The translations under genes were made by a program, and so were the position numbers. A stretch of DNA of 5,714 nucleotides from a virus: positions 1-5,714 of the IMG/VR virus record IMGVR_UViG_3300045988_004603; one strand, given 5' to 3'. How positions within the stretch are numbered: position 1 is the stretch's first letter; every line of letters begins with the position of its first letter. The notes beneath the pieces were generated by a model. The model ran no database searches. It was not told where the DNA came from and worked only from the letters and a program-made list of their open reading frames with translations. Shown here piece by piece: positions 1-5,714 of this stretch.

Positions 1-57
1 TATCACAAAAACGATATCATCAACGAAGTTATGGAGGATAACAACAATGACTTTTGA
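1..57 (+). CDS. 3' end of the second RHH-like ORF (duplicate of 5596-5652 caused by the terminal redundancy)
   Basis: Reads YHKNDIINEVMEDNNNDF* in frame, identical to the C-terminus of ORF 5452-5652. Confidence 0.8.
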   Translation, partial: YHKNDIINEVMEDNNNDF

Positions 58-119
58 ACTTTATGCAATCAAAGACGAGCTGGCGGGCACCTTCGGAAAC
101 ATCATGGTAATCAATCCGA
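1..119. repeat. Terminal direct repeat, copy A (identical to 5596-5714); a circular-genome assembly overlap
   Basis: Base-by-base comparison shows 1-119 (tatcacaaaaacgatatc...ggtaatcaatccga) equals 5596-5714. ORFs run seamlessly across the junction. Confidence 0.97.
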
Positions 120-304
120 TCGTTAAGGAAAGAACCTTCAAGTGGATGACCCAAGAGATGGAAAAAAGCGACTGCGAGGATAAGCGGGTCTATCATCTGG
201 GGCAGTACGACACCGAAACCGGCCTGATCACACCGTGCATGCCGGAGATGGAATGGAACATCGAACAGGTCAAGAAAACCATGGAGGAAAAAAAGGATGG
301 TTAA
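47..304 (+). CDS. VP5: Gokushovirus VP5/ORF5-like small non-structural protein (proposed analogue of phiX174 protein C)
   Basis: 85-aa ORF. GGAGG at 33-37 lies 9 nt before the ATG. The N-terminal F-x-L-Y-A-I-K-D-x-x-A-G-x-F block and the later Y-H-L-G-Q-Y-D-T-E-T-G-L-I block match, from memory, the conserved pattern of gokushovirus ORF5 proteins (F/Y..D.K...F..P ... L..IG.FD..TG). The gene sits immediately upstream of VP3. Confidence 0.65.
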   Translation: MTFELYAIKDELAGTFGNIMVINPIVKERTFKWMTQEMEKSDCEDKRVYHLGQYDTETGLITPCMPEMEWNIEQVKKTMEEKKDG

Positions 305-770
305 AATCTTTACACCCTATGGAGATGAAAAACCGAAAAGAGAGCCAAACGAGCCGGGAAATATTCTGGAACCGCAGTATAAAGAGCGGTACGATGAAAA
401 CGGGAATGCCTATCTTGAACAGGTCGGAGAGATCAACACGTATGAAAAAATCCAGAGCTTCAAAGACGAAGTTGACCCAATGAACATCCTTGCAAGGTAT
501 GCAGCAGGTGACACAACGGTCATGGCGAATCCTGGTTGGTACATCGACACGAGCAAATTACCTGCAAACTATATCGAGTGGCGGAACCTGATGAACGAAC
601 AGAAAGAAAGGTTCGAAACACTGCCGCTAGAAATCCGAAACAAGTTCGACAACAACTTCGATACCTGGGCAGCAACCGCAGGAGAGCCGAAATGGCTGGA
701 AAATATGGGCATTATGACGAAAAACGATGCTACAACACAACCTGATCAGAGCAAGGAGGCAGCAGAATGA
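297..770 (+). CDS. VP3: Internal scaffolding protein VP3
   Basis: 157-aa ORF. GGAGG at 283-287 lies 9 nt before the ATG, and the start overlaps the VP5 stop (ATGGTTAA). The blocks NTYEKIQSF, DPMNILARYAAGD and ERFETLPLEIRNKFDNNF are typical of gokushovirus VP3 (Chlamydia-phage scaffold family). The gene sits directly upstream of VP1 with an ATGA overlap. Confidence 0.85.
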   Translation: MVKIFTPYGDEKPKREPNEPGNILEPQYKERYDENGNAYLEQVGEINTYEKIQSFKDEVDPMNILARYAAGDTTVMANPGWYIDTSKLPANYIEWRNLMNEQKERFETLPLEIRNKFDNNFDTWAATAGEPKWLENMGIMTKNDATTQPDQSKEAAE

Positions 771-2458
771 ACAGAAACAGTGAACAACACTACAACCAGG
801 TACCACACGCAGAAATCAGGCGAAGCAAGTTCAAAAGAGATTTTTCACTGCTGACTACGATCAACGAGGGCGATCTGGTACCGATCTACACCGACGAAGT
901 GTTGCCTGGCGACACTTTCAAAATCGATGTGAACGGCCTGGTCAGAATGGCCACTCCGCTCTATCCAGTCATGGATAATTGCAACATGGATATTTTCTTC
1001 TTCTTCGTACCGTGTCGCTTGCTCTGGAATCACTTCGTGAACATGATGGGACAGAACGACAGTTCTTTCTGGGCAGAAACAACCGAGTACACAACACCAA
1101 CAGTAGAAGATCACGGAGGAAAAGGCTGGAAAGTAGGAACACTGGCAGATTACATGGGCATTCCAACAGGAGTGCCGGGCCTGAAAGTGAACAGAATGCC
1201 GTTCCTTGCATATGCGAAGATCTGGAATGAGTGGTTCAGAGATGAAAACTTACAACAGCCCGTAGAAGAAGACAAAACAGACAAAACACTGTGGTATGAA
1301 GAAACAGAGATAGGACAGCTGGGCGGGCCAATGAGAGGTGCAAACCTACTCAAAGTTTGCAAACACAAAGACTACTTCACCAGCAGCCTACCACAGCCAC
1401 AGAAAGGCCAGGCCGTGCCGCTGCCGCTGACAGGAAATGCAACGTTAAGAGCATACACCACGCCGGAACTAACCGAAATAAAAACAGGAACAGGATTTTT
1501 CAATAGCGAGTACAACAGCGGAATTATAAATCATGCAAACATCTCATTCACAAAACAAGGAGCAAAATTCAGCCTGAACAAAAACAACAACGGAAACAAA
1601 GCGCCGAAAAGCGGCGAAGAATACCTCGAAACAATGAGCCAGGACGATGCAAATTTTCTTGACGCATGGGTCGGAACGGACTTGAGCGCAGTCAACGCAA
1701 CCACGATCAACGAGCTCCGAAACGCTATCGCAGTACAACACATCCTAGAACGTGATGCCAGAACCGGAACCAGGTACAAAGAAATCCTAAAAGGGGCCTG
1801 GGGTGTAACATCGCCAGATGCACGACTTGACAGAAGCGAATACATCGGCGGATACAGAATGCCAATCAACATCAACCAGGTCATTCAGACCAGCAGCAGC
1901 AGCCAAATCAGCCCGCAGGGCAACACAGCGGCATACAGTATGACAACCATGTCCAAACACATGTGCACCTACAGTGCAACTGAGCACGGCTATGTCCTGG
2001 GCCTATGCTGCGTACGAGTAGATCACAGCTATCAGCAAGGTCTGAGCCGGATGTGGACACGCAGCACACGGTTTTCCTACTACGACCCGATGCTAGCAAA
2101 CCTGGGAGAACAACCAGTGCTTAACCAAGAAATCTATGCACAGGGTAACAGCAAAGATACCGAGGTATTCGGCTACCAAGAAGCCTGGGCCGACTACAGG
2201 TACCGCACAAACATGGTAACATCCGAAATGCGCAGCACCTACGCACAAAGCCTGGATGCCTGGCACTATGCAGACCACTACACGAGCATGCCGACACTGT
2301 CAAGCGACTGGATCAAAGAAGGCAGCGAGAACATCGCCCGGACGCTGGCAGTTGAAGATACCAATCATTCGTATCAGTTCATCTGTAACTTTTACTTCGA
2401 TCAGACCTGGACACGTCCCATGCCGATCTACAGCGTGCCTGGCCTTGATACGATCTAA
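767..2458 (+). CDS. VP1: Major capsid protein VP1 (Microviridae F-protein family)
   Basis: 563-aa ORF. AGGAGG at 754-759 lies 7 nt before the ATG. Hallmark blocks are RRSKFKRDFSLLTTINEGDLVPIYTDEVLPGDTF, MDIFFFFVPCRLLW, KDYFTSSLPQPQKG, TINELRNAIAVQHILERDARTGTRYKEILKGAWGV, RLDRSEYIGG and FGYQEAWADYRY. Confidence 0.97.
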   Translation: MNRNSEQHYNQVPHAEIRRSKFKRDFSLLTTINEGDLVPIYTDEVLPGDTFKIDVNGLVRMATPLYPVMDNCNMDIFFFFVPCRLLWNHFVNMMGQNDSSFWAETTEYTTPTVEDHGGKGWKVGTLADYMGIPTGVPGLKVNRMPFLAYAKIWNEWFRDENLQQPVEEDKTDKTLWYEETEIGQLGGPMRGANLLKVCKHKDYFTSSLPQPQKGQAVPLPLTGNATLRAYTTPELTEIKTGTGFFNSEYNSGIINHANISFTKQGAKFSLNKNNNGNKAPKSGEEYLETMSQDDANFLDAWVGTDLSAVNATTINELRNAIAVQHILERDARTGTRYKEILKGAWGVTSPDARLDRSEYIGGYRMPININQVIQTSSSSQISPQGNTAAYSMTTMSKHMCTYSATEHGYVLGLCCVRVDHSYQQGLSRMWTRSTRFSYYDPMLANLGEQPVLNQEIYAQGNSKDTEVFGYQEAWADYRYRTNMVTSEMRSTYAQSLDAWHYADHYTSMPTLSSDWIKEGSENIARTLAVEDTNHSYQFICNFYFDQTWTRPMPIYSVPGLDTI

Positions 2459-2472
2459 GGAGGTGCAGCACA

Positions 2473-3444
2473 ATGGCAGGATGGGGAGCAATCGCTTTGC
2501 AACTGCTGCCAAGCGTAGTGGGAGCCCTAGGAAACGTTGCAAGCAGCTGGATAAACTCGCAAGGGTCAAACAGCTCTGCAATGAATCAGAACACCATGAA
2601 CACACAAACTGGGAATACCAGCATGACCGGAAACACGAGCCAGACAACCGGCACACAAGGCGCACAGGTAACGCAAGGCAGCACATCCGGGATATCTGAT
2701 ATCCTGGGAAAAGCACTGACAGGCATCACCGGGAACAACAGTCAAACAGCAGCCAACTTTAACGCCGGACAGGCAACCACGGCAAACAACCTACAAAGCG
2801 GACAATGGGCACTAGGCAACTTAATGAACTTGTGGTCAAACGCCAGGGCAAACGAGCTGACAGCACAAAGCCAGGCCTCAGCAATGGCCTTTAACAGGGA
2901 AGAAAGCCAGAAGAACCGAGACTGGCAACAGATGATGAGCAGCACAGCCTATCAAAGAGGTGTAAAAGACCTGAAAGAAGCAGGTCTCAACCCGGCACTG
3001 GCAGCCTATAATGGTTTTGGAGCAAGCTCAGGCAGCGGGGGACAGGCAGCAGTCGGAAACTCAACTTTCAGCCACGCTCAGGCATCGGCTATACCGGCAG
3101 CACACACGGCCACCATGCAAGCAATGTATGACTACGGGAACAACACAAGCCAGTTCTTGCAAAATGCGATGCAAGCGATCAACACGGCAAAGGAAACCAA
3201 AAACTGGGAAGAAGCCGGTTATATGCAGAGTATCATGCAGAATATCGGCTCAACCAGCGCAAAAACGGTTGGAAACATTGCTCAGACCGCAAACAACACC
3301 TATAACAACAAATCCTCGGAAGAAACAGCAACAGCACCGAGAATAGCCACAGAAGCAGACAAAGCCATAAACGACCTGAAGAACAAATGGAACACAGGCG
3401 GAAAAGGCAAGTTCTCAGGCAGCGGAAGCGGCAGAGGAAGGTAA
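2473..3444 (+). CDS. VP2: Minor capsid / DNA pilot protein VP2
   Basis: 323-aa ORF. AGGAGG at 2458-2463 lies 9 nt before the ATG. It has a hydrophobic N-terminus (MAGWGAIALQLLPSVVGALG), a long Q/N/T/S/G-rich low-complexity segment and the conserved block SSTAYQRGVKDLKEAGLNPALAAY seen in gokushovirus VP2. It occupies the position right after VP1. Confidence 0.9.
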   Translation: MAGWGAIALQLLPSVVGALGNVASSWINSQGSNSSAMNQNTMNTQTGNTSMTGNTSQTTGTQGAQVTQGSTSGISDILGKALTGITGNNSQTAANFNAGQATTANNLQSGQWALGNLMNLWSNARANELTAQSQASAMAFNREESQKNRDWQQMMSSTAYQRGVKDLKEAGLNPALAAYNGFGASSGSGGQAAVGNSTFSHAQASAIPAAHTATMQAMYDYGNNTSQFLQNAMQAINTAKETKNWEEAGYMQSIMQNIGSTSAKTVGNIAQTANNTYNNKSSEETATAPRIATEADKAINDLKNKWNTGGKGKFSGSGSGRGR

Positions 3445-3474
3445 TTGACAAACACACAAAGGGGGGTGTATAAT
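3445..3474 (+). promoter_or_regulatory. Consensus sigma70/sigmaA-type promoter: TTGACA (3445-3450), 18-nt spacer, TATAAT (3469-3474)
   Basis: Both hexamers are perfect matches to consensus. The promoter starts immediately after the VP2 stop codon and lies about 40 nt upstream of the next ATG (3516). The expected transcription start is near 3481. Confidence 0.75.
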
Positions 3475-3515
3475 ATGGGTGTAAGAATCGTACACTTCAA
3501 GTAGGAGGACATAAC

Positions 3516-3686
3516 ATGCGAAGTCAAATGGCAAAAAGAATGAACATCAACCTGACACAAAAACAGATCGAAGAACTAGAGTTCATCAAAAGATGCAAAC
3601 TGTATGATAAATATATCGACAGTGATATCATAAGAGATGCAATTGACGTATACGCAGAAGCACTAGGATACCAAAAAACAGCTTGA
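3516..3686 (+). CDS. 56-aa predicted ribbon-helix-helix (CopG/Arc/MetJ-like) DNA-binding protein (RHH-1)
   Basis: Hand-translated, as it is below the ORF-track length cutoff: MRSQMAKRMNINLTQKQIEELEFIKRCKLYDKYIDSDIIRDAIDVYAEALGYQKTA*. AGGAGG at 3503-3508 lies 7 nt before the ATG. The layout is a basic tail, a beta-strand-like MNINLT, then two amphipathic helices. The second helix (SDIIRDAIDVY) resembles the S-x-x-I-R-x-A-I signature of RHH helix 2. Confidence 0.65.
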   Translation: MRSQMAKRMNINLTQKQIEELEFIKRCKLYDKYIDSDIIRDAIDVYAEALGYQKTA

Positions 3687-3763
3687 GTTACGGCTACCGC
3701 CTCACTCAGGGAAGAAACATTTGTCCATAACGAGTTACGAGCAGCATCTAAATTTTGTGTCAA

Positions 3764-3800
3764 TGGGCCCCAATAACATCAAGAAGGTTATTGGGGCCCA
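3764..3800. other. Perfect 14-bp inverted repeat (hairpin) with a 9-nt loop
   Basis: TGGGCCCCAATAAC (3764-3777), loop ATCAAGAAG (3778-3786), GTTATTGGGGCCCA (3787-3800). The arms are exact reverse complements. No T-run follows on either strand. It lies 8 nt upstream of the VP4 AGGAGG. Confidence 0.9.
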
Positions 3801-3826
3801 ATCAGGGAAGGAGGCATGAAACATCT

Positions 3827-4930
3827 ATGCCATGTACGAGGCCGTTGGTTAGAACCGTCATCAACCGACAAGAAAGAGTAGTCAGCCTAAAGGCATACCT
3901 ATCAAAAACAGGCGAAAGACTGGAATACGATGCAGACCCGAAACAGCAAAAGTGGAACGAACAACGGATTAAAAGAATGCTCAAAGAGCAGAACGCTCAA
4001 CTGCTGCCATGCGGGCACTGTCCTGGATGCAAAATGGCAAATGCAGCATCCTGGGCGAACCGAATGGAAATGGAACTGCCATACCATGAAAACGCCTGGT
4101 TCCTGACACTAACCTATGACAACGAAAATGTCCCATATCGAGCGACATGGGACACACTGACAGGCGAAGTGATAACAGAAAACCTCAGTCTATGCTATGA
4201 GGACATGCAGAAGTTCTGGAAACGTCTCAGGAGATACATAAAGTACCACGAAATAGAAACAGGAAAGCTGATGTATTTCCAAGCTGGTGAATATGGCAGC
4301 CAGACACACAGACCACACTATCATGCAATCGTCTACGATCTACCGATAAAGCAAGAAGAACTGAAAATTTACAAGAAAGAAAGAGGATACACATACTATA
4401 ACTGTAAATGGCTAGAAAAAATCTGGGGTATGGGACACGTAATCCTGGCACCGGCAGAATGGCGATCAATGGCATACACAGCAAGATACACAACAAAAAA
4501 GATTTACGGAAAGGACGGTAAAAAATTTTATGAAGAACTAGGTATAATGCCGGAACAGTGCCTAATGAGCAAAAAACCAGCAATCGGAGCACAATACTAT
4601 TACGACCATGCAAAAGAAATTTACGACAAAGACCAAATCCAGCTGAAAAACGGCAGATTGGTAAAGCCACCAAGATATTTTGATAAGCTATTCGACATTG
4701 ACCACGGAGCAAAACCGCTGACAGATGAAGAAGTGCAAAAAATCGAGAATATAACAGAAAAAGCCGAATCCGAAGAACTGAAAGCAATTAAAAGAGAACG
4801 TCGCAGAATTGCTAACGACGCACTCTTTGCTCAGTTACAACAGACCGGCCAGACCATGCAAGACTATTATAGCCTGAAGGACAAAAAAATGCAAGAACGA
4901 ATGAGCAAGCTAATTCGTACCGAGGTCTAA
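3827..4930 (+). CDS. VP4: Replication initiator VP4 (HUH rolling-circle endonuclease, phiX174 A-protein analogue)
   Basis: The track ORF starts at 3755, but that N-terminal extension is encoded by the palindrome and has no RBS. ATG 3827 gives MPCTRPL..., a typical VP4 N-terminus, and follows AGGAGG at 3809-3814 with a rather long 12-nt spacing. Motifs present are CGHCPGCKMANAASWANR, FLTLTYD (RCR motif I), RPHYHAIVY (HUH, HYH at 4316-4324) and YTARYTTKK (two catalytic Tyr at 4475-4477 and 4487-4489). Identity is near certain; the start codon is less so. Confidence 0.92.
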   Translation: MPCTRPLVRTVINRQERVVSLKAYLSKTGERLEYDADPKQQKWNEQRIKRMLKEQNAQLLPCGHCPGCKMANAASWANRMEMELPYHENAWFLTLTYDNENVPYRATWDTLTGEVITENLSLCYEDMQKFWKRLRRYIKYHEIETGKLMYFQAGEYGSQTHRPHYHAIVYDLPIKQEELKIYKKERGYTYYNCKWLEKIWGMGHVILAPAEWRSMAYTARYTTKKIYGKDGKKFYEELGIMPEQCLMSKKPAIGAQYYYDHAKEIYDKDQIQLKNGRLVKPPRYFDKLFDIDHGAKPLTDEEVQKIENITEKAESEELKAIKRERRRIANDALFAQLQQTGQTMQDYYSLKDKKMQERMSKLIRTEV

Positions 4931-5072
4931 GCCATGAATAAAAAAAATTCGGAAAATGTTAAAATACATCCATAAACCGCAACGATAAATCGACAATCGG
5001 AAGCGTACAACGAATCATAAAAAGCTACAAAAGCAAATAAAAGCGCAAACCGAAATCTGACCTATAAGCTAC

Positions 5073-5114
5073 GCTGTCCTCTATTCGTCGGCCGACCACG
5101 GCCGATCGGACAGC
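5073..5114. other. Nested GC-rich imperfect hairpin in the large non-coding region
   Basis: The outer stem pairs GCTGTCC (5073-5079) with GGACAGC (5108-5114). The inner stem pairs TCGGCC (5088-5093) with GGCCGA (5100-5105) around the loop GACCAC. CGGCCGA also occurs twice (5089-5095, 5099-5105). This is the only GC-rich island in an A-rich spacer. Confidence 0.7.
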
Positions 5115-5141
5115 CAACAACGGAAACAACATCAAGAACAG

Positions 5142-5173
5142 CAAGGTGGACAAAATTCCACCTTGTTTTTTTT
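5142..5173 (+). terminator. Rho-independent (intrinsic) terminator downstream of VP4
   Basis: The stem pairs CAAGGTGGA (5142-5150) with TCCACCTTG (5157-5165) around the loop CAAAAT. A T8 run follows immediately (5166-5173). Confidence 0.85.
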
Positions 5174-5200
5174 CTCTTTTTGATAAAATGAAACTATAAA
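5172..5200 (+). promoter_or_regulatory. Weak candidate promoter for the structural operon (-35-like TTCTCT 5172-5177, -10-like TATAAA 5195-5200)
   Basis: A promoter is expected between the terminator (5173) and the first coupled ORF (5229). TATAAA is a 5/6 match, the 17-nt spacer is right, but the -35 is poor (3/6). The alternative TTGATA (5180-5185) has no properly spaced -10. Confidence 0.3.
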
Positions 5201-5228
5201 CAAAATTACCGAAAGGAGGTTGAAAACA

Positions 5229-5336
5229 ATGGTCACTTTACAGGACATCAACGCAATTTTCAGGCATCTCAAAAAAATCCTGCACATGCTGGATAAGATT
5301 TACCACACACTGGAACTCGACAAGGAGGAAGAGTAA
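5229..5336 (+). CDS. 35-aa hypothetical protein (predicted single amphipathic helix)
   Basis: Hand-translated: MVTLQDINAIFRHLKKILHMLDKIYHTLELDKEEE*. AGGAGG at 5214-5219 lies 9 nt before the ATG. Its stop overlaps the next start (TAATG), consistent with translational coupling. I recognise no family. Confidence 0.5.
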   Translation: MVTLQDINAIFRHLKKILHMLDKIYHTLELDKEEE

Positions 5337-5455
5337 TGGCATACCGCAGCACTGTTAAACCGAAGACCGACAAAAAAGTTTTCACCAACACGGCAAAGAA
5401 AACCAAAAAGATCAACGTCAACCCGAAACCGAGCCGAGGAGGAATCCGACTGTGA
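5336..5455 (+). CDS. Small basic DNA-binding/packaging protein (gokushovirus ORF8-like, phiX174 J analogue)
   Basis: Hand-translated: MAYRSTVKPKTDKKVFTNTAKKTKKINVNPKPSRGGIRL*, 39 aa with about one third K/R. The F-x-x-T-A-x-x-T block and the C-terminal RGG-I-R-L match my recollection of Chlamydia-phage/SpV4/phiMH2K ORF8-type proteins. AGGAGG at 5323-5328 lies 7 nt before the ATG. Confidence 0.75.
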   Translation: MAYRSTVKPKTDKKVFTNTAKKTKKINVNPKPSRGGIRL

Positions 5456-5652
5456 AGAGCATCAAAGAAATGACATGCTGCACACTGACAGTCAGACTGA
5501 GGTATGACACAGCAGCCGAAATCGACGATCTGGCAGAAGAACTGGGATGCAGCGTGCCGGCAACGACACGAAAAGCAATCGAATATGGGTTGAAATATCA
5601 CAAAAACGATATCATCAACGAAGTTATGGAGGATAACAACAATGACTTTTGA
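5452..5652 (+). CDS. 66-aa predicted ribbon-helix-helix (CopG-like) protein (RHH-2)
   Basis: MKSIKEMTCCTLTVRLRYDTAAEIDDLAEELGCSVPATTRKAIEYGLKYHKNDIINEVMEDNNNDF. The layout is a beta-strand TLTVRLR, a helix DTAAEIDDLAEEL, a G-x-S turn (GCS) and a helix VPATTRKAIEYGLKY, which is the RHH signature. A GTG start at 5452 overlaps the upstream stop (CTGTGA) and follows GAGGAGG (5436-5442) by 9 nt. ATG 5470 is an alternative start. The 3' end overlaps the VP5 start by 11 nt. Confidence 0.65.
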   Translation: MKSIKEMTCCTLTVRLRYDTAAEIDDLAEELGCSVPATTRKAIEYGLKYHKNDIINEVMEDNNNDF

Positions 5653-5714
5653 ACTTTATGCAATCAAAGACGAGCTGGCGGGCACCTTCGGAAACATCAT
5701 GGTAATCAATCCGA
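5596..5714. repeat. Terminal direct repeat, copy B (identical to 1-119)
   Basis: See copy A. 5596 minus 1 gives a unit genome length of 5,595 nt. Confidence 0.97.
5642..5714 (+). CDS. VP5: 5' part of VP5 (duplicate of 47-119), truncated by the window end
   Basis: ATG at 5642 equals ATG 47 plus 5,595, and the sequence is identical. Confidence 0.65.
   Translation, partial: MTFELYAIKDELAGTFGNIMVINP

Follow-up and report, generated by a model that had tools for sequence, protein, structure and literature searches.

A predicted ribbon-helix-helix regulator gene, an operator-like promoter and a conserved hairpin ahead of the replication initiator gene of a gokushovirus

The closest described counterparts of the locus analysed here are plasmid and phage systems governed by small ribbon-helix-helix (RHH) proteins. 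The locus lies in a 5,714-nucleotide stretch of viral DNA, IMG/VR record IMGVR_UViG_3300045988_004603 (the window, meaning this whole stretch), in which a 56-codon open reading frame (ORF), predicted to encode an RHH protein, is found directly upstream of, and on the same strand as, rep, the gene for the HUH rolling-circle initiator VP4. By promoter prediction only, one common promoter, P1, serves both genes; GTGTA boxes overlie it, and a conserved hairpin lies between the genes. In plasmid pMV158, the operator of the RHH protein CopG is located over the -35 hexamer. In the Sulfolobus plasmid pRN1, the gene for the small RHH protein ORF56 immediately precedes that for the replication protein, the two are transcribed together and ORF56 binds its own promoter, while the RHH protein omega of pSM19035 (inc18) reads short direct and inverted repeats at several promoters, one of them for copy number. 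In pMV158, copG is transcribed with repB as one unit and its product is an autorepressor; establishment of this plasmid in a new cell requires an unrepressed burst (PMC5717011, PMC4485353).

A first, sequence-only reading of the window had likened this locus to copG-repB, and as regards architecture the likeness stands. In both cases the first cistron encodes a very small protein of RHH type (45 aa in pMV158; 56 aa here, where the fold is predicted), and a single promoter, in the present case by prediction, serves both this gene and that of an HUH rolling-circle initiator, the candidate operator here overlapping the promoter; the logic expected here, an unrepressed burst in a new cell followed by a set dose of Rep, would also be shared. 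Homology, by contrast, does not follow. Similarity to CopG is found at the level of the fold only (hhalign probability 80%), with no specific homology, and VP4, with its two tyrosines (PF23343), is of the phiX174 Rep type rather than the RepB type. Furthermore, the boxes here lie over the -10 hexamer and transcription start at 13 bp intervals, a hairpin is present between the cistrons, and the replicon is a lytic-type virus and not a plasmid. The antisense arm of the plasmid circuit was not found, in that no RNAII-like promoter scoring at least 8/12 is present on the minus strand of positions 3650-3960. On sequence grounds, the cassette is analogous to copG-repB and not homologous to it.

The other systems are matched in part. 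One member of the family of the 56-aa protein weakly matches the NCBIfam 'ORF56 family plasmid copy control protein' (E = 0.04), and PDB 2k9i is among the weak profile matches of the family; however, these matches are sub-threshold, and pRN1 is an archaeal plasmid whose replicase, ORF904, is a primase-helicase and not an HUH Rep. As with omega, the GTGTA boxes are both direct and inverted, and in relatives they are found at two promoters, but omega reads contiguous 7-bp heptads instead of 5-bp boxes every 13 bp, its gene is not beside an HUH Rep gene, and no sequence similarity was detected between omega and the 56-aa protein. Arc and Mnt of P22 are likewise phage-encoded minimal RHH repressors, and Arc (1par) is the top Foldseek match in the PDB; unlike the present protein, they belong to immI control in a tailed, temperate, double-stranded DNA phage and have no link to a replication initiator. 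To our knowledge, microviruses are regarded as being without dedicated transcription factors. The earlier statement that the canonical gokushovirus gene set lacks a dedicated transcriptional repressor agrees with the searched literature, which contains no account of a repressor or an RHH protein from a microvirus, and large surveys of these viruses list methyltransferases and lysis genes as the only accessory functions (PMC9239249).

The 56-codon gene and the predicted fold of its product

The 56-codon ORF is a real gene under purifying selection, judging from its distribution and pattern of substitution. A search of 5.8 billion proteins identified homologues in 23 clusters with 73-95% identity, mostly on contigs of 5.1-5.9 kb, a profile search of a 50%-identity library found 30 clusters, and 31 loci with 39-96% identity were collected from IMG/VR. 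The order VP2, ORF, VP4 is invariable in relatives. Conservation and synteny had been proposed as a check on the sequence-only reading, and the ORF proved to be present upstream of VP4 in 49/49 VP4 relatives (48-94% VP4 identity) with enough upstream DNA. The ratio of non-synonymous to synonymous substitution rates (dN/dS) is 0.07-0.21 against close relatives, synonymous sites being saturated in more distant comparisons, and one variant of the protein is encoded on 118 contigs. The cassette of promoter, RHH gene and hairpin is also present in GenBank entries MG945569 (5242-5621), KX513873 (5204-5631) and MT135351, where the RHH gene is unannotated; sources that label the ORF name it 'hypothetical protein'. 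Scanning 185,579 species genomes found no relatives, the sole match being a spurious one to the N-terminus of RsmG (MNINLTQKQIDELK), and tblastn of the protein against 72,556 plasmids returned chance-level matches only.

The RHH fold is supported as the best reading of the 56-aa protein, as the sequence-only reading had proposed, by predicted structure, structural and profile comparisons that are each weak alone but all point in the same direction. The family shares the pattern KR-h-N-h-N-L-T ... S-D-I-I-R-D-A-I-x-x-Y, which is typical of RHH proteins. With a diverse alignment, the AlphaFold2 monomer has a predicted local distance difference test (pLDDT) score of 83.7 and consists of an extended segment at residues 9-14 (MNINLT; block pLDDT 93) and helices at 15-27 and 35-49; the extended segment is not assigned as a strand in the monomer, as is expected for RHH proteins. 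A model built from close homologues alone was of low quality (pLDDT 66) and had no Foldseek matches. For the better model, nine of the 13 top Foldseek matches in the PDB are RHH proteins (template modelling (TM) scores 0.50-0.69, E 1.4-8), among them, besides Arc, NikR, ParD/PrpA (7ycw and 7ycv, TM 0.65-0.69), ParB of pCXC100 and Reg576. The top two matches in BFVD are entries named 'RHH protein, CopG' (TM 0.63-0.78, E ~1). The lack of significance of these structural matches is attributable to the shortness of the protein.

Profile comparisons give a similar picture. In CopG, residues R4, T6 and T8 of the strand read bases and the residues of the SKS turn cap the N-terminus of helix B. The hhalign comparison of the family with CopG, for which a 45-aa CopG query, equal in length to the 2cpg/1b01 chains, was used, covers 40 columns and pairs R8, N10 and N12 with these three strand residues, the SKS turn being aligned too. 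R8, N10 and N12, the predicted base contacts, are at least 90% conserved, and S36-D37 opens helix B. Pfam RHH_1 is the commonest match, found for 13/33 family members (best E 9e-4); in NCBIfam the matches are aCcr1 in 10/33 members (best E 0.0026), the ORF56 copy control family and NikR, all of them RHH families, and a PDB profile search recovered CopG at E = 0.7. Searches of Pfam, the PDB and PHROG with the single 56-aa sequence were uninformative.

Many members of the family have a C-terminal extension of acidic residues and LPF (EEEDLPF, NDDLPF, DDDDLPF), which is missing from the protein of the window. Such tails are found in relatives L028-L038, L042 (5273-5485) and L097 (2360-2569), and in proteins P0024, P0030, P0033, P0034, P0036, P0037 and P0050. 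They resemble the C-terminal tip DDDIPF (also DDDLPF) of SSB (a protein that binds single-stranded DNA), which docks replisome and repair proteins (PMC5872125). Contig L097 contains two tandem RHH paralogues, the second of which is tailed and has the altered strand residues I8, K10 and K12.

Promoter P1 and the GTGTA array

No promoter in the window other than P1 (3445-3474; Table 1) scores 12/12, whichever strand is considered; ~0.0016 such matches per genome are expected from base composition. P1 is conserved throughout the clade. The sequence-only reading had described this promoter right behind the VP2 stop, an AGGAGG and a 56-codon frame after it, and an HUH initiator encoded by VP4, and each of these is present as described. 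VP4 matches Pfam REP_ORF2-G2P (PF23343; 1.5e-14) and PHROG 942 (phrog_942; 8e-97); its best start is ATG 3827 (MPCTRPLV...), and relatives have the same 367-aa gene called. No promoter-like site scoring at least 8/12, and hence no separate promoter for VP4, is found on either strand between 3650 and 3960. As there is no other sigma-70-like promoter between the RHH gene and VP4, co-transcription of the two is the default expectation and VP4 would rely on P1 or on read-through from upstream; because VP2 lacks a terminator, late transcripts would enter P1. At the other end of the unit, a scan of the + strand of the whole window gave the site at ~5140-5177 and no other terminator-like site. Close relatives share it, and terminators after VP4 are present in relatives as well. 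The earlier claim that no terminator intervenes between the RHH gene and VP4 is correct for canonical terminators, the first of which is at ~5140, but it overlooked a conserved hairpin between the genes.

Also absent from the sequence-only reading was the array of GTGTA boxes over the -10 hexamer and the expected start. Boxes 1 and 2 form a direct repeat with 13-nt spacing, and box 2 forms with the inverted box 3 the motif GTGTA-N7-TACAC, present once in the window where 0.01 would be expected. The pair 3478/3496, flanking this inverted repeat, covaries (G-C 15, A-T 15, G-T 4, A-C 0). In 34 distinct relatives, the block GGTGTATAwTATGrGTGTAnnAAtCnnACaC (3465-3495) is near-invariant, even though the adjacent gene is saturated at synonymous sites, whereas the end of VP2 upstream is not conserved; the conservation of R8, N10 and N12 in the protein parallels this invariance of the boxes. 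The motif GTGTA-N8-GTGTA, of which 0.15 copies would be expected in 18 non-redundant genomes of the clade, is present there 37 times, on the + strand only. These occurrences are limited to two places, P1 (at -10 and +1) and a second consensus promoter 3' of VP4. The second promoter in relatives contains three GTGTA boxes, one behind the -35 hexamer, one on the -10 hexamer and one at +1, and has been lost from the window.

More distant loci have comparable arrangements. The distant contig L222 carries three AGGTGTA boxes with a 13-bp period, and an inverted copy, over its RHH promoter. In a family member with N10 replaced by V, different palindromes (TGTATATACA) are found over the promoter; this member (L099 1120-1373, strand KRSVINFT), a distant one whose 1.4-kb contig is T-rich, is preceded by a terminator and by a promoter with many TGTATATACA-type palindromes. 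Operator and protein may have changed together in this case.

The unit at the second promoter varies between relatives. In L042 (1217-1498) and L004 (2597-2909), it comprises the three-box consensus promoter, a small variable gene and a strong terminator, in the manner of a moron cassette; the products of the two small genes, of 53 and 60 aa, are unrelated to each other. In L205, the promoter adjoins the terminator with no gene between them. In the window (5090-5175) and in L007, the core of the promoter is deleted (a 24-nt gap), leaving the terminator alone.

Several other explanations of the conserved P1 region were tried and rejected. A leader mini-ORF (ATG 3475, MGVRIVHFK*) has invariant third codon positions and variable first and second positions, and its ATG is upstream of the expected start. 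An M13-like promoter mimic in single-stranded DNA, acting as a minus-strand origin, is not indicated, as 3435-3520 folds no better than shuffled sequence (z = -0.41). The best dif/XerCD-like sites score 17-18/28 across the genome, which is the level of chance, and 12-13/28 in 3441-3510, in comparison with the dif sequences of E. coli and B. subtilis. An extended -10 promoter does not explain GGTGTATAAT, since its TG abuts TATAAT directly and is in the wrong register. Rfam gave no meaningful matches.

The hairpin upstream of VP4 and its genomic setting

Between the RHH gene and VP4 is a perfect hairpin whose pairing has been maintained by substitution on both sides. Among 21 distinct relatives, compensatory changes are found in 13/18 hairpin pairs and 95.8% of cells are paired; none of 500 shuffles paired as well, and controls slid along the alignment were 30-46% paired. 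The consensus of the loop is ATCAAGArG, with an invariant core TCAAGA. In L222, the stem is a wholly different 21-bp sequence, yet the loop ATCAAG and a GTGTC at the base are kept. Folded as single-stranded DNA, the hairpin has an energy of -16.9 kcal/mol (z = -4.6). As no T run follows, it is not a canonical terminator, which is why a terminator scan missed it, and on the minus strand it is likewise without a T run behind it.

Judged from its sequence, the hairpin is a candidate either for a rolling-circle origin or site of recognition by Rep, or for an RNA element lying between the two genes. The invariant loop, covarying stem and position just upstream of rep would fit the first of these. 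The reverse complement of the loop, CTTGAT, which we take to resemble the nick region of phiX174 and pC194, was set aside because it is on the non-packaged strand. Among the matches listed in a pattern scan of IMG/VR, all the true hairpins are on contigs belonging to this clade, which is weak evidence against its presence elsewhere. Hairpins of unknown function are located upstream of Rep in other small microviruses (PMC9865509). These are alike in lying just upstream of Rep, in having an identical loop and in showing compensatory changes of the stem among relatives, but they belong to other clades, differ in sequence and have no RHH gene reported adjoining them.

Further features were observed around VP4. 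Between its Shine-Dalgarno sequence and ATG (3809-3829) is the conserved block GAAACATC(C/T)AT; the distance between these two elements is long, at 12 nt, and an out-of-frame ATG at 3816 starts a 21-codon ORF. The ~210 nt 3' of VP4 (4931-5139) contain no ORF and one promoter-like site, a weak one (4990-5018, 9/12). At ~5089-5104 there is a G+C-rich element, GGCCGACCACGGCCGA, that is conserved, and the 11-mer AACATCAAGAA at 5128-5138 repeats the sequence of the hairpin loop region at 3775-3785; this repeat is not kept in two more distant relatives that were checked. Directly 3' of the terminator T run is TGATAAAAT (5181-5189), of the extended -10 form TGnTAAAAT, which reads GGTAAAAT in relatives. 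It is a plausible site for what is probably the late promoter of the structural-gene operon, and it has zero GTGTA boxes.

The window is a gokushovirus (Microviridae) genome, having VP1, VP2, VP3, VP4, VP5 and a small basic DNA-binding protein on a circle of the expected 4.5-6 kb, with all genes on the + strand (Table 1). Its ends share a terminal repeat of 119 nt (bases 1-119 = 5596-5714), from which it is concluded that the circular genome is complete at 5,595 nt. The composition of the packaged (coding) strand is skewed, with A at 36.7%, T at 16.7% and G+C at 46.6%. Strong Shine-Dalgarno sequences and sigma-70 consensus hexamers would argue against a Bacteroidota host.

Table 1. Positions of genes and sequence elements in the 5,714-nt window
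Feature	Position	Strand	Remarks
VP5	47-304	+	Phage_ORF5, 1e-8
VP3 scaffold	297-770	+	Chlamy_scaf, 2e-31
VP1 capsid	767-2458	+	Phage_F, 1e-157
VP2	2473-3444	+	By gene order; stop TAA 3442-3444
P1 -35 hexamer TTGACA	3445-3450	+	Begins right behind VP2 stop; TTGAC invariant in 34 distinct relatives
Box 1 GGGTGTA	3464-3470		Overlaps -10 hexamer; GGTGTATA invariant in relatives
P1 -10 hexamer TATAAT	3469-3474	+	Spacer 18 nt in window, 17 nt in nearly all relatives
Box 2 GGGTGTA	3477-3483		At expected transcription start (~3481)
Inverted box 3 GTACACT (reverse complement AGTGTAC)	3490-3496		With box 2, GTGTA-N7-TACAC
Shine-Dalgarno AGGAGG of RHH gene	3503-3508	+	7 nt ahead of ATG 3516
56-codon ORF (RHH-type protein gene)	3516-3686	+	ATG 3516, TGA 3684-3686
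Non-coding box TTGTGTCA	3755-3762		Hairpin 5' foot; invariant
Hairpin	3764-3800	+	Perfect 14-bp G+C-rich stem (3764-3777 / 3787-3800), 9-nt loop ATCAAGAAG
Shine-Dalgarno region GGAAGGAGG of VP4	3806-3814	+	
VP4/Rep, HUH rolling-circle initiator	3827-4930	+	367 aa; HYH 164-166 ('HYHAIVY'), YxxxY 217-221
Intrinsic terminator closing RHH-VP4 unit	~5140-5177	+	11-pair stem (5140-5167) and T run
38-aa ORF	5220-5336	+	ORF only
39-aa basic protein	5336-5455	+	phrog_10695
66-aa ORF	5452-5652	+	Conserved, DNA-binding-like

A proposed circuit and its alternatives

The 56-aa RHH protein is probably, though by no means securely, an autorepressor that doses Rep, encoded by the first cistron of a unit running from P1 through the RHH gene, the hairpin and VP4 (Rep) to the terminator. 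Binding to GTGTA, repression and a role in timing or dosage are what we infer from this arrangement. At the start of infection, with RHH protein absent, the consensus promoter would fire at full strength and give a burst of Rep. As RHH dimers accumulate, they would bind the GTGTA boxes, which lie 13 bp apart over the -10 hexamer and the start and are followed by the inverted copy; this would silence P1 and keep Rep at a set dose per replicative form. Bound protein may also act as a roadblock to read-through from the late operon. In relatives, the same array would be read at the second promoter, that of the small cargo genes, so that the protein would control a small regulon.

Several observations weigh against this proposal. 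As to the fold, the protein of the window itself has no Pfam or NCBIfam match at E <= 1, all Foldseek E-values exceed 0.9, and the inter-helix loop, of ~7-8 residues, lacks the usual glycine. As to the operator, the 13-bp period of the boxes exceeds one helical turn, and they could have another reader, be it the product of the 66-aa ORF (5452-5652) or a factor of the host. Finally, the conserved hairpin could uncouple VP4 from expression of the RHH gene, and the box at its foot contains GTGT, such that the protein could act there and not at the promoter.

An improbable alternative is that the RHH protein is an origin-accessory factor, instead of or besides being a repressor, which binds by the hairpin and aids nicking by VP4 or assembly of the replisome, as do the RHH partners of HUH relaxases (TraY, TrwA, NikA). 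An invariant loop on a covarying stem immediately upstream of VP4 is the signature of a rolling-circle origin, the GTGT of the hairpin foot recurs in the promoter boxes, a NikA-like RHH protein is among the Foldseek matches in BFVD, and the ..EEDLPF or ..NDDLPF ends of many relatives resemble the SSB tip DDDIPF (PMC5872125). The GTGTA array is, however, tied to two promoters in a fixed -10/+1 register, whereas the hairpin has a single GTGTC only; the protein of the window has no SSB-like tail; and the hairpin is only a candidate origin, and the searched literature gave no gokushovirus origin.

A more ambitious version of the autorepressor proposal, regarded as similarly unlikely, would make the RHH protein the master switch of a plasmid-like circuit for replication control and immunity, comprising copy number, a block to superinfection and a replisome recruited by the tail to the origin. 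Were this true, the copy number of the replicative form would be set and episomal (carrier-state) persistence allowed; superinfecting members of the clade would be blocked, because the operator and recognition residues are invariant; and the SSB-tip-like tail of relatives (..DLPF) would recruit the host replisome to the hairpin, which would be the long-sought gokushovirus origin. Episomal persistence has been seen experimentally in another gokushovirus (PMC7062461), but any tie between it and the 56-aa gene is speculation. The sequence-only reading had suggested a carrier state or persistent infection, and no support was found for this link or for one to lysogeny, there being no relatives in the 185,579 species genomes and no dif-like site.

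Less probable still is that something else, either the 66-aa protein or a host protein, reads the GTGTA array, while the 56-aa protein targets, for instance, host genes or binds in an anti-defence or antitoxin-like role. The 66-aa ORF, which is conserved, has an RHH- or helix-turn-helix-like pattern (hhalign to CopG 49%), and RHH domains occur in antitoxins, ParD and PrpA being among the structural matches. Nevertheless, subclades with an identical GTGTA array have 66-aa proteins of only 23% identity, which makes this protein an unlikely reader, whereas the strand residues of the 56-aa protein are invariant. Furthermore, the 56-aa protein lacks a C-terminal partner-binding extension, a 5.6-kb genome has no room for a toxin partner, and a repressor gene directly behind its operator is the usual autoregulatory layout. 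The 66-aa protein itself has the segments CTLTVRL, TAAEIDDLAEELG and SVPATTRKAIEYG, ends in the acidic ..EDNNNDF and is 82-89% conserved in close relatives; its gene overlaps with both neighbours, the basic-protein gene at that gene's end and VP5 at its start.

It is very doubtful that the conserved leader is just a strong promoter with a 5' mRNA element and the small ORF non-regulatory: conservation of the -10 region would be needed anyway, and the GTGT/ACAC inverted repeat with its one covarying flanking pair could make a small stem, but that stem would be cut short in RNA by an expected start (~3481) within its left arm, the region folds no better than shuffled sequence (z = -0.4), the second promoter has the GTGTA period with a different downstream sequence, the ORF is under purifying selection, and the mini-ORF is dismissed by its invariant third and variable first and second codon positions.

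On the reading of the 56-aa protein as an autorepressor of P1, the RHH-Rep control module predicted in a microvirus, the RHH family and the operator defined here would all be new. The viruses concerned form a clade of abundant and widespread gut gokushoviruses with a conserved regulator-type gene, a consensus promoter bearing an operator-like array and a covarying hairpin ahead of Rep. If true, this would be the first transcriptional circuit in the family and would offer a handle on the dose of Rep and on the timing of early and late expression. It would also supply a candidate origin element, and its defined parts (56 aa and ~40 bp) would be testable in vitro without a known host. Plasmid-style control of Rep dosage would then have arisen, or been kept, in a virus of an unrelated Rep lineage.

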